IMG/VR virus record: IMGVR_UViG_3300020122_000155
Span: 41,066 to 105,065 of that record
Length of the DNA: 64,000 nt
Source: a virus
Reading direction: 5' to 3' (one strand)
Within the stretch, counting starts at the first letter, position 1; each line of letters begins with the position of its first letter. This document shows positions 8,532-13,935 of the stretch, in pieces. The notes below the pieces were generated by a model. The model made no database searches and was not told where the DNA came from. It saw nothing but the letters and a program-made list of their open reading frames with translations. Both the position numbers and the translations under genes were made by a program.

Positions 8532-8764
8532 AACGCGGCGAGAGAATCTGGACCTGCGAGGTTTGCGGCAAAGAGGCTCCGTGGGGTGATGGATGGCAGT
8601 CCTATGGGTCAATTCGCAATGACGAGGGCGGCTTGCCTCCAATTGTGGTTTGCTCGCTGGCTTGCCGCGACGATCAGAAAACCAAGCAGTTGATCGAGGA
8701 GTACTGCGTTGTCGAAGCCGCGATGAAGAAGGAAGGCTATTTCCGTCGAGGACCGTGCCGATGA
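8528..8764 (+). CDS. small Cys-rich (zinc-binding) protein
   Basis: CEVCG...CSLAC. Confidence 0.6.
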   Translation: MKRGERIWTCEVCGKEAPWGDGWQSYGSIRNDEGGLPPIVVCSLACRDDQKTKQLIEEYCVVEAAMKKEGYFRRGPCR

Positions 8765-8773
8765 ACTTTTCTC

Positions 8774-8802
8774 TTGCAAAGCTCAAGGAAGAGGGTTAGA
8801 CT
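8774..8802 (+). promoter_or_regulatory. sigma70-like promoter, predicted leaderless start near 8810
   Basis: TTGCAA (8774-8779), 17 nt, TAGACT (8797-8802); ATG follows after 7 nt. Confidence 0.7.
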
Positions 8803-8809
8803 TTGAGGT

Positions 8810-9235
8810 ATGACGTAGGTGCAAGGTTCGCCAAACGAGCAGTACGTTTACATTTTTGTCCGCCAGGACATTTCCCTTCCTCAGCAGATCGTCCAATCCA
8901 ACCACGCAACGCTTTCCTTTTCTTCCCATCATGGCGTGGAGGGAATCCCAAACATTGTTCTTATCGGAGTCCCCAACGTTGCCGCACTGAAAGAGGCGTG
9001 CGCGTTGCTGTCGGCCAACCAGATTCCGCACTGGAGTTGGACTGAGCCGGATTTCAACCTGGGATTCACAGCCATTTGCACAGCCGCGATTAGCGGATCG
9101 GAGCGCCTATGTCTGGCGCACTACCGCACGTGGAAACCAGTTTTTCCCTCGTCAGCTAACTGCAAGCTGGCAGTCTCTAACACTGCTCATGCTGGGGCGG
9201 GTCCAGCCGAGGGAACCAATGCCGCTGTAGCTTAA
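8810..9235 (+). CDS. Pth2-fold (peptidyl-tRNA hydrolase II / PTRHD1-like) protein; in-frame TAG at codon 3 if started at ATG 8810, otherwise GTG 8819
   Basis: YIFVRQDI....QIVQS.HA, NIVLIGV, W.EPD....TAIC match the phage Pth2-like pattern; the last ~30 codons overlap the tRNA-like genes. Confidence 0.8.
9145..9218 (+). tRNA. non-canonical amber-suppressor-type tRNA (anticodon CUA)
   Basis: Acceptor TCCCTCG/CGAGGGA + A + CCA; D stem AGCT/AGCT; anticodon stem GCAGT/ACTGC with loop CT-CTA-AC; T stem GCTGG/CCAGC. Confidence 0.8.
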
Positions 9236-9290
9236 AGCAGAGCGCTCGCGCAAGCGATAGATGGAGGGTCGCGTCCTTCCAGCGGCACCA
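9221..9290 (+). ncRNA. tRNA-like RNA with a GCAA tetraloop in place of the anticodon loop
   Basis: Acceptor GCCGCTG/CAGCGGC + ACCA; D stem GCTT/GAGC; TCGC-GCAA-GCGA; T stem GGAGG/CCTTC. Confidence 0.75.
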
Positions 9291-9294
9291 GAAT

Positions 9295-9378
9295 GCTTCG
9301 GTAGCTTAAATGCTAGAGCGACCGGCGATCCTCACGGGTTGTCGGTAGATGGTGGTGAAAGGCCATCCCGGAGCACCA
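9295..9378 (+). ncRNA. tRNA-like RNA with an 11-bp anticodon-position arm and 4-nt loop
   Basis: Acceptor GCTTCGG/CCGGAGC + ACCA; D stem GCTT/GAGC; ACCGGCGATCC-TCAC-GGGTTGTCGGT; T stem GGTGG/CCATC; T-run follows. Confidence 0.75.
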
Positions 9379-9389
9379 TCATTTTTTTC

Positions 9390-9417
9390 TTGCAAATATT
9401 CTGGATCTGGTTATACT
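9390..9417 (+). promoter_or_regulatory. sigma70-like promoter of the Hfq-like/replication operon
   Basis: TTGCAA-16-TATACT. Confidence 0.6.
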
Positions 9418-9444
9418 TTTTACTATCCCGCAAGGATAATTTTA

Positions 9445-9498
9445 GCGATAGCCGCCAGCCTTGATCTGGCGGCATATCGCCAGCCTATCAAGGAGGCT
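9445..9498 (+). promoter_or_regulatory. 5' leader: two hairpins with complementary loops covering the RBS
   Basis: 14-bp stem with loop CCTTGAT; 5-bp stem with loop ATCAAGG; SD AAGGAGG lies inside hairpin 2. Confidence 0.6.
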
Positions 9499-9500
9499 TT

Positions 9501-9770
9501 TTGAACCAGCCGCTAAGAGCGCCTTTAGCATCTCCACCGCAGGCGCAACAAAAACCACCTGTCCCAATAAAGCCAAAGCCCAACGATCCCTTTCGAGAGC
9601 AGCTATCTCGTTTCAAGAAAAAGTTTGTTAGGGTCGTTACCACAGAGGGCAAATTTGAGGGTAAATTGATCTGCTTTGATTACGGATCTAAGGCCCTCGT
9701 GATCGAATCCGGCGACAGCCCGATACTGCTTTCCCACTACCATTCCATCGTGATAATCGATGGCCAATAA
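9501..9770 (+). CDS. Hfq/Sm-like RNA-binding protein
   Basis: DPFREQLSRFKKKFVRVVTTEGKFEGKLICFD parallels the Hfq helix plus Sm1 (DPFL..L.....V.....G.KL.G.I..FD); TTG start with AAGGAGG. Confidence 0.6.
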   Translation: MNQPLRAPLASPPQAQQKPPVPIKPKPNDPFREQLSRFKKKFVRVVTTEGKFEGKLICFDYGSKALVIESGDSPILLSHYHSIVIIDGQ

Positions 9771-10588
9771 TGAAGCGGCCCTGGATGCAATTGTACACTA
9801 GGGACTGGCTCGACAGCACGGAATTGAGGCGCTGTTCACCATTGGCTCGCTCCGTTTTAACGGACCTAATGTGCATCGCCCATGAGGGCGTCCCTTATGG
9901 GCATTTGACCGACAAAATCGGTCCATTAACGGACGAGTTTATGTCTTCGCGGTGCGTCGTACCGCTTCCGACATTCAGAAAAGCAATTCTGGAACTGCAA
10001 CAAGCAGAAAGACTTCACAAAGACGATAGCGGCGTCATGTTCATCAAGAGGATGGTCTTGGACGAGGACGTAAGGGTACGTAGGGCGGCTGGCGGCAAAG
10101 AAAGCATAGGCCACCCAAATACACACCCTCCAAAGACAAAAGAAGGGTACCCTTCTTTTGGAAATGACTCACGCGGGCGCGCGCCCGCTGACTCTGAATC
10201 TGTAAGTGAAGGTTTTATAAAATCAGAAAATCAGGAAGCGAAAACGGAACTCGTTTTGGCGAACGAGATCGATATGGTTTTGTTCGAGGAGTTGCTCGGT
10301 CTTTTTGTGGCGCTCGGTCGCGGGTTGACCATCGGCGACAAGATGCGATGCCAGAACGAGTGGTTCGCGCTGCAATCCGCCGAGCGGAAATTGGCACACA
10401 AATTCGCGATGCAGAACCTCGCCGACTGGCAAAGCCGGGAAACCAGCAAAATTGCCCAACCGTGGAACTATTTGCGCGAGCGCCATTGGGAGCGGGCGGC
10501 TCCGAGGATACTTGAGCGCACCCGACCGCCGACAAAAGCGCAGGAAGCGCACGAGCGGGCAGCTAGGGCATTCAGGGAGGGCACGTGA
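9770..10588 (+). CDS. phage replication initiator / replisome organizer
   Basis: KRPWMQLY.RDWL...LRRCS..AR....DLMC.AH...PYG.L and ..RMV.DE N-terminal domain. Confidence 0.75.
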   Translation: MKRPWMQLYTRDWLDSTELRRCSPLARSVLTDLMCIAHEGVPYGHLTDKIGPLTDEFMSSRCVVPLPTFRKAILELQQAERLHKDDSGVMFIKRMVLDEDVRVRRAAGGKESIGHPNTHPPKTKEGYPSFGNDSRGRAPADSESVSEGFIKSENQEAKTELVLANEIDMVLFEELLGLFVALGRGLTIGDKMRCQNEWFALQSAERKLAHKFAMQNLADWQSRETSKIAQPWNYLRERHWERAAPRILERTRPPTKAQEAHERAARAFREGT

Positions 10589-11798: not shown

Positions 11799-12772
11799 AC
11801 GAAGAACAAGAACTAGCCGGACTACTTGAGCAGCACAATAATCAGCCGCCGCGACCGAGCAACGTCGAGCTAGCGTCATCGCCGCCGATGCGAACCGGAA
11901 CCGATGTCGATTTCGCCCAGTGGCAGATTCTTTCGAACGGGAAGTATCGGCCAGGAGCAAAGACGCGAGAGAAGCTGCCTGCCGCCGTCTACCGCGCCGG
12001 TCAGGACGATTTCGGCCCGTTCCTGGAGCTAATCAGCCTTGTCTCTGACGACTTCGTAGAGCTTCCAGAACCGGCGCATATTCGCGTACTCGACGGCATT
12101 CGAAAGTTCTGGCGGTCGCGTGAGCGTTACGAAAAACATGGCCTGTTGTATAAGCGCGGCGTGCTTTTGTGGGGACCTCCAGGAGCCGGGAAAACGGTGT
12201 GCATTCACCTGCTGATGGCGGAGATCGTCAACAAGCATGACGGCATTGTTCTGCTGGCTGACAATCCCGATTTGACGGTGGCCGTCCTGCGATTCTTCCG
12301 CCGCATCGAGCCGACGCGCCCGTTGATTGTTGTGTTCGAGGACGTGGACGAAACCGTGAACCGATTCGGCGAACACTCCCTGCTTGCGGTACTCGATGGA
12401 GAACACCAAACGTCGAACATCGTCTATCTGGCGTCAACCAATTACCCGGAGCGCCTTGGTGCGCGGATCGTCAACCGTCCTTCGCGCTTCGATGAACGAA
12501 TCAAGATCGGTATGCCGTCGAGCGCAGCGCGGATGGGGTATCTCAAAAAAGCGATAGGGACCGGCGATGTGAATGTCGAAAAATGGTGCTTAGAGACGGA
12601 CGGAATGAGTATCGCGCATCTTCGCGAGCTTGTGGTTGCGGTGCTCTGCTTGGAGCAGGATTATGAGACTGTTCTTGCTCGGCTGAAGGCGATGGAAATC
12701 ATGCCAAAACCGGAGGATGGATTCAAACACGCGAAGTTTGGACTCGAAAACGCAATGCGTGGTTTACGATGA
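11795..12772 (+). CDS. AAA+ ATPase
   Basis: YKRGVLLWGPPGAGKT (Walker A), VVFEDVD (Walker B), STNYPE, RPSRFD; GTG start. Confidence 0.9.
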   Translation: MNEEQELAGLLEQHNNQPPRPSNVELASSPPMRTGTDVDFAQWQILSNGKYRPGAKTREKLPAAVYRAGQDDFGPFLELISLVSDDFVELPEPAHIRVLDGIRKFWRSRERYEKHGLLYKRGVLLWGPPGAGKTVCIHLLMAEIVNKHDGIVLLADNPDLTVAVLRFFRRIEPTRPLIVVFEDVDETVNRFGEHSLLAVLDGEHQTSNIVYLASTNYPERLGARIVNRPSRFDERIKIGMPSSAARMGYLKKAIGTGDVNVEKWCLETDGMSIAHLRELVVAVLCLEQDYETVLARLKAMEIMPKPEDGFKHAKFGLENAMRGLR

Positions 12773-13935
12773 ACGAAGCCGACTTGAAGATAATCGCCGA
12801 GCGCGAGGAGCGCGAAAAGACGCCGTGGATGTGGTGGCACTGGCAGAACCTCAACGACAAAAAGGGCGGCGGTCAAGGCTCTGGTTTGCGCCACGGTCGA
12901 TGCTGGTGGCACTTCCGCACGAAGAGTCGCAGGCCAGGGCCAACAATCCAGTTCTCTTGGAATCTGTGGTCGCATTTTTGCGGCATCGGAGTTGACTGGG
13001 ACGACGAGGATTTGACGTTCAGCGCCGCGTTCCCGCCGTTCGCGTTCTGGCTGTCGCTAAGCACAAATTTCGCGTGGATAGACAAGATCCTGCCGCACAA
13101 GGTTCTGTCGCCAAACTACCCGGACACCATCGTTGTCGATAAGCGCGAGATCGCGATAAAGATCCACAACGGCTGCGTCTGGATTCATCCATATTCGAAG
13201 TCGATGGAGTGGGTGAAGGCCGATCCGTGGTGGGTGCGTGGGGTCAGCTTCAGCATCAATCCGTTCGAAGCAAAACATCAGCGCCATGAAGTCCGGCGCG
13301 CCGATGGTTCTTGGGTGCCTTACGTCGGATCGTGGGAAGTTGGGCCGAGTCGCGGAGAGGGAATCGGCGGGCAGTTAGGTGGGAAGGAACCGGACGGACG
13401 CGAAGAGTTCAAGTATCCGTACACCTACGTTCGCAAAAACGGGGAGGTTCAGCAGCGAACGGCTACGGTGTTTGTTGACCGGCGTGCATGGCGTCCACGG
13501 TGCCTTCAGTGGACTTCGCTATTCGAGGATCAGCGCCAGTGCATCGACGTTTCCTTTGACGACGAAGTGGGCGAGCGCAGCGGATCGTGGAAGGGTGGCG
13601 CGGTCGGGTGCGGCTACGAGATGCTTCGCGGCGAGACGGCGGAAGAGTGCTTACGGCGCATGGAGCGCGAGAGGAAATTCTTGATGCGGTACATCGTAAT
13701 CTTTCAGCAGGTAGTCGGGAATTGGGAAATCTGCTACTCGTGGGACGGCGAGAAGTTCACGAACTACATCGATGCGAGGAGCCACGGATTTGAAACGCGC
13801 GGTTCGGATGATTTCAATATCGGAGTTTTGAAAAACGGACGCCTGATTTCATTTCGGTGGATGGATGAGGTTCTCGACTTTCCACTTTGCGAGATCGCGT
13901 TGCACATCGGACTGAAAGCGAACAAGGCAGCGTGA
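12769..13935 (+). CDS. Trp-rich phage hypothetical protein (possibly two fused genes)
   Basis: F..EVGERSGSWKGG motif; internal RBS and ATG at 13684. Confidence 0.7.
   Translation: MNEADLKIIAEREEREKTPWMWWHWQNLNDKKGGGQGSGLRHGRCWWHFRTKSRRPGPTIQFSWNLWSHFCGIGVDWDDEDLTFSAAFPPFAFWLSLSTNFAWIDKILPHKVLSPNYPDTIVVDKREIAIKIHNGCVWIHPYSKSMEWVKADPWWVRGVSFSINPFEAKHQRHEVRRADGSWVPYVGSWEVGPSRGEGIGGQLGGKEPDGREEFKYPYTYVRKNGEVQQRTATVFVDRRAWRPRCLQWTSLFEDQRQCIDVSFDDEVGERSGSWKGGAVGCGYEMLRGETAEECLRRMERERKFLMRYIVIFQQVVGNWEICYSWDGEKFTNYIDARSHGFETRGSDDFNIGVLKNGRLISFRWMDEVLDFPLCEIALHIGLKANKAA

Follow-up and report, generated by a model that had tools for sequence, protein, structure and literature searches.

The DNA described here, referred to below as the window, is a stretch of 64 000 nucleotides with a G+C content of around 55%, corresponding to bases 41066–105065 of the 105 065-bp IMG/VR virus record IMGVR_UViG_3300020122_000155, a soil phage with direct terminal repeats at its ends. 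A compact group of features lies in this window on the plus strand: (i) a gene for a protein resembling peptidyl-tRNA hydrolase 2 (Pth2), whose third codon is TAG, (ii) an amber suppressor transfer RNA (tRNA) gene, and (iii) two tRNA-shaped, CCA-ended RNAs, here called RNA1 and RNA2, in which a sealed hairpin stands in place of the anticodon loop (Table 1). The genome uses the standard genetic code: long open reading frames (ORFs) give 89% coverage under this code, which rules out a recoded genome, and TAG closes 18 of the 109 long ORFs. With default settings, the suppressor is the sole tRNA that ARAGORN reports in the entire 105-kb genome.

Table 1. Features of the locus, its surroundings and related loci. 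Positions without a prefix are those of the window; positions prefixed with L lie in related loci.
Feature	Position	Strand	Evidence or remark
Promoter-like site, TTGCAA-17 nt-TAGACT	8774–8802	+	Putative; read by eye, just 5' of the ATG
Amber gate, ATG-ACG-TAG	8810–8818	+	Directly in frame with the ORF from 8819
Pth2-fold domain	8819–9142	+	AlphaFold2, Foldseek, profile; frame open across the suppressor tRNA to TAA at 9233–9235
Amber suppressor tRNA, anticodon CUA, encoded CCA	9145–9218	+	ARAGORN; cloverleaf fold
RNA1, CCA-ended tRNA mimic, anticodon arm of 4 bp + GCAA tetraloop	9221–9290 (70 nt)	+	Sequence, fold, Rfam tRNA model, model R3
RNA2, CCA-ended tRNA mimic, anticodon arm of 11-bp helix + UCAC loop	9295–9378 (84 nt)	+	Sequence, folds, model R3
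Run of seven T's	9382–9388	+	3 nt past the CCA of RNA2; not called by the terminator scan
ORF with weak LSM/LSM12 match	9501–9770		Below the Pfam cutoff
388-aa ORF with Acb3 domain	12769–13935		E = 1e-36; 3.4 kb downstream
Cluster of odd tRNA-like RNAs	G000:C1:36614–36975	−	Around 4 kb before the window
Mini-RNAs	L013:3407–3457, L014:3381–3432, L015:3369–3420, L016:3381–3430, L017:3390–3441, L026:3307–3351, L003:2839–2882		
Similar CCA-ended hairpins behind mimics	L005:5613–5647, L006:3706–3755, L008:4089–4138		
Type II CUA suppressors	L004:3860–3966, L005:5820–5923, L017:3446–3551, L020:5073–5177, L051:4081–4187		8-bp variable arm, Ser/Leu/Tyr-like
tRNA-like RNA, 9-nt anticodon loop containing CUAC	L021:3326–3400		Directly 3' of a gated Pth2-like gene
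Short ACCA-ended RNAs of the ungated sub-family	L031:3320–3385, L033:1001–1068, L036:3512–3582, L037:3347–3421, L040:954–1034		17–203 nt 3' of the gene

RNA1 starts after a spacer of 2 nt behind the suppressor, and RNA2 after a spacer of 4 nt behind RNA1. The two RNAs have in common a 7-bp acceptor stem beginning with G1–C72 and C2–G71, followed by A73 and an encoded CCA. Their D stems of 4 bp are identical, the linker is UAGAU in both, and a loop of 7 nt closes each 5-bp T stem. A preliminary description of the locus, made from the letters of the sequence alone, had listed these parts together with the two sealed arms, and all of them are present; its remark that GC replaces the canonical GG in the D loop holds for RNA1 and RNA2, and the D loop of the suppressor likewise lacks GG. 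The T loops of RNA1 and RNA2 (GUCGCGU and UGAAAGG, respectively) are not of the T-psi-C type, so that neither RNA has a canonical elbow. Nor does either possess the 7-nt loop, U33, three-nucleotide anticodon and purine 37 of a tRNA anticodon loop. Because their anticodon arms are sealed, neither RNA can decode, as had been proposed.

The minimum free energy folds of RNA1 and RNA2 are cloverleaves of −28.8 and −35.3 kcal/mol (z = −1.6 and −2.8, respectively), the value for RNA2 being −40.0 kcal/mol with the correct first base. The Rfam tRNA model (RF00005) recognizes RNA1 with 41.8 bits (E = 2e-7; gathering score 29), placing a 4-nt insert where the 7-nt loop would be, and gives no match to RNA2 at E≤10. 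ARAGORN at default settings calls neither RNA as a tRNA. No other Rfam family was matched by either of them, the YrlA model (RF02553) found nothing at E≤10 between 8700 and 9500, and no transfer-messenger RNA (tmRNA) was found in the window by ARAGORN with its tmRNA search or by the Rfam scan.

The stems of the two RNAs differ in sequence and are nevertheless intact. At four places, acceptor pairs 3, 4 and 6 together with the third pair of the T stem, RNA1 and RNA2 differ in both bases; these changes are compensatory, no pair is broken, and there is no mismatch in the acceptor, D or T stem of either copy. The anticodon arm of RNA2 is 9 nt longer than the normal 17-nt arm, yet forms a perfect 11-bp helix (including four G–U pairs), which is unlike random decay.

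Sealed-anticodon RNAs of this kind are not confined to the window. Clean examples were found in at least a dozen lineages, with arms of 6–7 bp capped by GCAA, GAAA, CUCG or AUAC, or with long arms that contain an internal loop and end in a GAAA cap. Eleven sealed mimics, all from other phages, were aligned (alignment A8). In this alignment 97.5% of cells are paired overall and 90.9% in the sealed helix, and changes on both sides occur in all six sealed-helix pairs and all seven acceptor pairs; none of 500 shuffles reached the observed values, and sliding the partner strand lowered pairing to around 50%. All 11 members end in NCCA, and both RNAs of the window in ACCA. A covariance model built from this alignment (R3), which includes no window sequence, scores RNA2 with 46.4 bits (E = 2e-11) and RNA1 with 41.4 bits (E = 7.5e-10). 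These are its only matches at E≤1 on either strand of the 64-kb window, and the adjoining suppressor is not matched. Since R3 was built without them, its matches place RNA1 and RNA2 in the class by an independent test, of the kind that the preliminary description had suggested for its view that selection acts on shape; the intact stems, the four compensatory changes and the match to a covarying family from other phages all bear that view out. As judged from sequence, therefore, RNA1 and RNA2 are tRNA-shaped RNAs that do not decode and are kept by selection, not decayed tRNA genes, and they would be made as discrete products.

Acceptor stems are kept within sub-families of the mimics, such as the ACGCGGG type, one member of which (L055:657) is a normal CUA suppressor. 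No mimic that was checked has a G3–U70 pair, a long variable arm or G−1. In other phages the mimics mostly lie between other tRNAs, with no T-run behind them. A blastn search with positions 8700–9800 against GenBank phages gave no match, and neither did an exact-pattern scan of IMG/VR for the D-arm and linker signature of RNA1 and RNA2. A role as primer or antisense RNA was rejected: genome matches to the three RNAs are merely 12–15 nt long, mostly at chance level, and of the same sense where orientation could be judged.

The gene upstream of these RNAs begins in an unusual manner. The preliminary description had read ATG-ACG-TAG as a separate minigene with a single threonine codon, but it turns out to be the in-frame, amber-gated start of the Pth2-like gene. 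Upstream of the conserved domain and in its frame, around 33 of 46 related IMG/VR loci have ATG, zero to eight codons and then TAG, never TAA or TGA, and the codon that follows TAG is usually no start codon (ATT, GTT, CTG, AAG or GTA). Because the stop is always TAG, the domain has no start of its own and a CUA tRNA is adjacent, the arrangement is best explained as a read-through gate, not as a free-standing minigene. The minigenes of the lambda bar type (ATG, one sense codon and a stop) alone cause peptidyl-tRNA drop-off, which is cleared by Pth; the TAG of the window differs from them in being in frame with a conserved, start-less domain beside a CUA tRNA. A distant Pth2-like sub-family has ordinary starts. 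Members of this ungated sub-family have a short ACCA-ended RNA behind the gene (Table 1), with a T arm and a tmRNA-like GGAC or AGAC junction; four of these five RNAs also contain a CUAAAGG motif. The gate is also present in the cultured Acinetobacter phage ME3, Ralstonia phage RsoM2USA and Salmonella phage Arash, in whose GenBank records the gated gene is truncated, missing or split. In ME3 an annotated 'tRNA-OTHER, anticodon CTA' lies 450 nt upstream of the gene, and no sealed mimics were seen within 2.5 kb of the gene in these three phages.

The ORF at 8819–9235 by itself has no Pfam match. A profile of its relatives, however, recovered 2122 cluster representatives at E≤1e-3 from a library of 1.8 billion proteins, and the AlphaFold2 model, based on 82 sequences, has a predicted local distance difference test (pLDDT) score of 95.8. 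Among the top 12 Foldseek matches in the PDB, 11 are chains of the archaeal Pth2 family or human Bit1 and the other is Atu0240, with template modelling (TM) scores of 0.68–0.75 and E-values of 4e-5 to 5e-4. A profile search against the PDB found peptidyl-tRNA hydrolase 24bt_A (E = 5.8e-5), Pfam PTH2 (PF01981) was matched weakly by five of ten family members (best E = 0.012), and the R-x-D and Q-x-x-H-A motifs line up in the alignment to Pth2 of the PDB. The predicted structure thus shows with confidence that the gene neighbouring the RNAs encodes a Pth2 fold, in agreement with the label that it had been given. A metagenome scan with this protein returned at best 57% identity, apart from one 1.9-kb fragment that ends inside the gene; its residues 1–45 are 100% identical, and it is probably from the same phage.

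No stop codon closes the Pth2-like ORF ahead of the suppressor tRNA, and the TAA that finally ends it falls inside RNA1. An ORF with no stop ahead of the next tRNA is found also in the nearest clade (L002, L003 and L013–L018). Excision of the tRNA would consequently leave a non-stop messenger RNA (mRNA). Since UAG stands in frame at codon 3 of the same message, synthesis of the Pth2-like protein would need the suppressor. Like its two companions, the suppressor deviates from consensus, with the T loop GGCGGGU, a D loop without GG and C at position 9, and it is not reported by the Rfam tRNA model at E≤10. Five loci contain type II CUA suppressors, which adjoin type I suppressors of the same island, so that a single phage has amber suppressors of different identities; another locus has a tRNA-like RNA with an enlarged anticodon loop (Table 1).

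The company of these elements was examined in other phages with a general tRNA-body model (R2). The first 46 sources, namely 45 loci and the window, contain 139 tRNA-like RNAs, all on the strand of the gene, and metagenome loci contain a further 42. The largest class by far is that of the CUA suppressors, of which there are 61; nearly every locus has at least one, and nearly all gated loci have one within 2–3 kb. A tRNA-like RNA was found in the flanks of 56 of 71 non-redundant loci, starting no more than 150 nt downstream of the gene in 23 of 68. Four jumbo phages of 332–463 kb, each with 30–50 tRNA genes in several arrays, allowed a comparison within genomes. Within 3 kb of the Pth2-like gene there are 27 tRNA-like RNAs, 10 of them CUA suppressors and 11 non-decoding or odd, compared with no CUA suppressor and around seven odd RNAs among 150 in arrays sampled away from it (Fisher p = 1e-9 for suppressors and 2e-6 for non-decoding RNAs). 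When all ORFs of the loci were clustered, the Pth2-like gene was the sole conserved protein family, the next clusters (IMPDH-like, late-transcription coactivator and cell-wall hydrolase) being lineage-specific. In several relatives a permuted tmRNA or a tRNA-Lys(UUU) lies close by, the latter in the L005 and L008 islands. The common strand, the predicted common operon and the recurrence of the layout across phages support a tie between RNA1 and RNA2 and the Pth2-like gene.

The preliminary description had named normal anticodon loops with random decay at these positions in close relatives as a finding that would refute it. In the closest loci, whose proteins are 50–59% identical, the second tRNA slot is usually occupied by a normal CUA suppressor; in place of randomly decayed loops, a conserved, non-decoding, CCA-ended RNA of around 50 nt lies directly 3' of the first suppressor. 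These mini-RNAs combine a 7–8-bp acceptor stem with two hairpins, one capped by GNRA and a short one whose loop is 6 nt long, and end in NCCA; their alignment shows double changes in 13 of 15 pairs. This aligned family was used in place of a crude count of hairpins of the 'stem + NCCA' form, which at 80 per strand did not discriminate. Similar CCA-ended hairpins stand behind mimics in three further loci (Table 1), and L013 contains a tRNA-like RNA with a 6-nt loop lacking U33. What remains constant from the cloverleaf mimics to the mini-RNAs is a stable helix, a single-stranded NCCA and an adjoining T-arm-like hairpin.

Genes flanking the locus are small, closely spaced and on the plus strand, and their matches are to phage families of unassigned function (DUF1643, DUF3307, an AAA ATPase and an Acb3-like domain). 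The promoter-like site agrees with consensus at 8 of 12 positions, against a scan threshold of 9 of 12; its −35 hexamer, TTGCAA, occurs also in a promoter-like site that the scan did report at 9390–9417. The T-run behind RNA2 is probably the end of the transcription unit, and no promoter or terminator signal was seen between the Pth2-like gene and RNA2. The label 'Hfq-like' previously attached to the ORF at 9501–9770 could not be upheld: apart from the weak LSM/LSM12 match, sequences of solved structures gave nothing significant (E = 0.1 only), and the ORF has no counterpart in related loci. Further downstream, the ORF with the domain of Acb3, an inhibitor of the cyclic-oligonucleotide-based antiphage signalling system (CBASS), suggests an anti-defence neighbourhood. 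The minus-strand cluster before the window includes a tRNA body without most of its acceptor stem, a tRNA-Arg(UCU)-like gene carrying an insert of around 110 nt, and a permuted T-arm/acceptor-hairpin/D-arm unit that matches YrlA with 32.5 bits.

What might RNA1 and RNA2 do? Sealed arms range in length from 4 bp to over 11 bp, which makes a role set by the distance between anticodon and CCA, for example at ribosomal decoding sites, unlikely. The only conserved gene partner is a protein of the Pth2 fold in the same operon, presumably dependent on the suppressor, and for this reason we rate as most likely, although still tentatively, that the two RNAs are non-consumable ligands of the co-transcribed Pth2-like hydrolase. 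A single transcript would begin at the promoter-like site (8774) and finish at the T-run (9382), and RNase P together with 3' trimming would excise the suppressor, RNA1 and RNA2 from it. The suppressor would read UAG at codon 3, so that the Pth2-like protein would be made only once the suppressor works. RNA1 and RNA2 may then act through their common half, the acceptor stem, the T arm and the single-stranded A-CCA. Enzymes of the acceptor end bind tRNA by this half, and the most economical partner would be the hydrolase, which such substrate look-alikes could tune, limit or direct. What we infer here is that discrete RNAs are produced, which partner they bind and in which direction they affect it. 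Bacterial Pth1 binds tRNA by the CCA-acceptor-T domain, which alone makes up a full substrate moiety, and makes no contact with the anticodon arm (PMC3488237).

Several points weigh against hydrolase ligands. Pth1 is structurally unrelated to Pth2, so that the precedent comes from a different enzyme. The lysine of the GK motif, which is catalytic in Pth2, aligns with glutamine in this family, making the enzyme chemistry uncertain. Mimics that are not charged would face competition from the large cellular pool of tRNA. The T and D loops are non-canonical in all three RNAs here and canonical in the mimics of jumbo phages, and the elbow is therefore no constant feature. Finally, a clean sealed mimic lies within 3 kb in only around one-third of gated loci, and thus the hydrolase does not strictly depend on one. 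A wider formulation, possible but doubtful in our judgement, is that the island is an undescribed phage module of translation control, in which the suppressor would license the hydrolase, and the mimics, full cloverleaves and mini-RNAs alike, would in trans regulate or guide the hydrolase or shield the acceptor end of the suppressor.

Unlikely, but with several observations in its favor, is that the mimics are anti-defence decoys, whose CCA-ended acceptor helix would bait host toxins or immune effectors that attack acceptor ends and so spare the suppressor and other tRNAs. Such attackers include nucleotidyltransferases of the MenT/AbiEii type and pyrophosphokinases of the CapRel type, and the tRNA arrays of phages are held to compensate for defences aimed at tRNA. 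The acceptor stem with NCCA is the sole part kept from cloverleaf mimics to mini-RNAs, the Acb3-like domain is encoded in the same window, and the tRNA-Lys(UUU) of two islands is a known target of anticodon nucleases. No toxin partner was identified, however, and a stoichiometric decoy must outcompete the entire tRNA pool; nor would decoys account for the particular link with the Pth2-like gene and the CUA suppressors.

We give still less credit to a purely cis-acting role, with no function in trans, in which the mimics would recruit RNase P and trimming enzymes, block exonucleases or end transcription. The tight packing of the three RNAs and the T-run behind RNA2 would suit such modules, and with no stop codon ahead of the tRNA it is cleavage that would set the 3' end of the Pth2-like mRNA. 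Against this, two full cloverleaves exceed the needs of processing, although an encoded CCA is an RNase P determinant, and the other tRNA arrays of jumbo phages manage nearly without such elements. The internal position of most mimics elsewhere, within tRNA arrays and without a T-run, led us to reject a terminator role as a general explanation.

It is improbable that the mimics serve as charged carriers or titrators, which would be charged by an anticodon-blind synthetase and would either transfer their amino acid outside the ribosome or tie up the synthetase or EF-Tu. Synthetases that accept CUA suppressors do tend to tolerate anticodon changes, and the conservation of acceptor stems within sub-families, including the ACGCGGG stem found on a normal suppressor, is in keeping with charging. 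Nevertheless, the three identity features sought in the mimics were missing, mini-RNAs of around 50 nt would be poor synthetase substrates, and no aminoacyl-transferase gene is conserved nearby. Partnership with a phage system of the Ro60/Rsr type, as for Y RNAs, is very improbable: permuted tRNA-like RNAs with a YrlA-like match do lie around 13 kb upstream in the same genome, but RNA1 and RNA2, which end at the acceptor stem and not in a Ro-binding helix, give no such match at E≤10, and no TROVE genes were seen in jumbo-phage islands. Equally hard to credit is that they are functionless, decaying duplicates of the suppressor gene, since the ordinary suppressors in the second slot of the nearest relatives and the acceptor stems that some sub-families share with suppressors are outweighed by the mismatch-free stems, the perfect long arm of RNA2, the compensatory changes between copies, the covariation of sealed arms across independent lineages and the enrichment of the sealed form at the island.

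Comparison with known RNAs sets this family apart. Phage tRNAs (RF00005), including the CUA suppressors of TAG-recoded phages, resemble RNA1 and RNA2 in the cloverleaf, the 7-bp acceptor stem, NCCA and location in a tRNA operon, and probably have their maturation enzymes in common with them. They differ in having a 7-nt anticodon loop with U33 and an anticodon, whereas RNA1 and RNA2, with T and D loops off consensus, belong to a genome that is not recoded. The tRNA-like domain of tmRNA is likewise an anticodon-less mimic with an acceptor stem, T arm and CCA, and in related phages tmRNA genes adjoin the Pth2-like gene; however, tmRNA has a tag reading frame and pseudoknots and no D stem, and RNA1 and RNA2 lack its alanine identity pair, G3–U70. 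YrlA and other bacterial Y RNAs (RF02553), which also occur in phages, are non-decoding and contain a tRNA-like module, but this module is permuted, with a loop closing the acceptor-like stem and the RNA termini located in a Ro-binding helix, in contrast to the free CCA acceptor ends and sealed anticodon arms described here. In eukaryotes, the mascRNA/MEN-beta RNA and the TMERs of gammaherpesvirus 68 are cloverleaf-like, non-decoding and cut by tRNA processing enzymes, the TMERs being virus-encoded and uncharged. These are nuclear RNAs to which CCA is added post-transcriptionally, with no link to a hydrolase or suppressor, and no sequence or model match connects them with RNA1 and RNA2.

Rfam 15 contains no family of phage RNAs that combine a whole tRNA body and CCA with a sealed anticodon, and neither anticodon-less phage tRNA mimics nor an amber-gated phage Pth2 turned up in full-text literature searches. 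Papers on jumbo phages mention genes for Pth, tmRNA and tRNA nucleotidyltransferase in general terms only. Thus, non-decoding look-alikes of tRNA are known, such as tmRNA, Y RNAs, mascRNA and viral tRNA-like structures, but no description of the full-body phage family with a sealed anticodon was found. There is a bearing on annotation as well: GenBank records of cultured phages omit, truncate or split the gated gene, and standard tRNA finders skip or mislabel the mimics. The phages ME3, RsoM2USA and Arash offer laboratory systems for the amber gate. The fixed company of suppressor and gated Pth2-like gene points to an unrecognized form of translation control or protection in phages, including those that use the standard code. 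If the island is indeed a translation-control module, RNA1 and RNA2 would represent a new functional class of tRNA-derived regulatory RNA.

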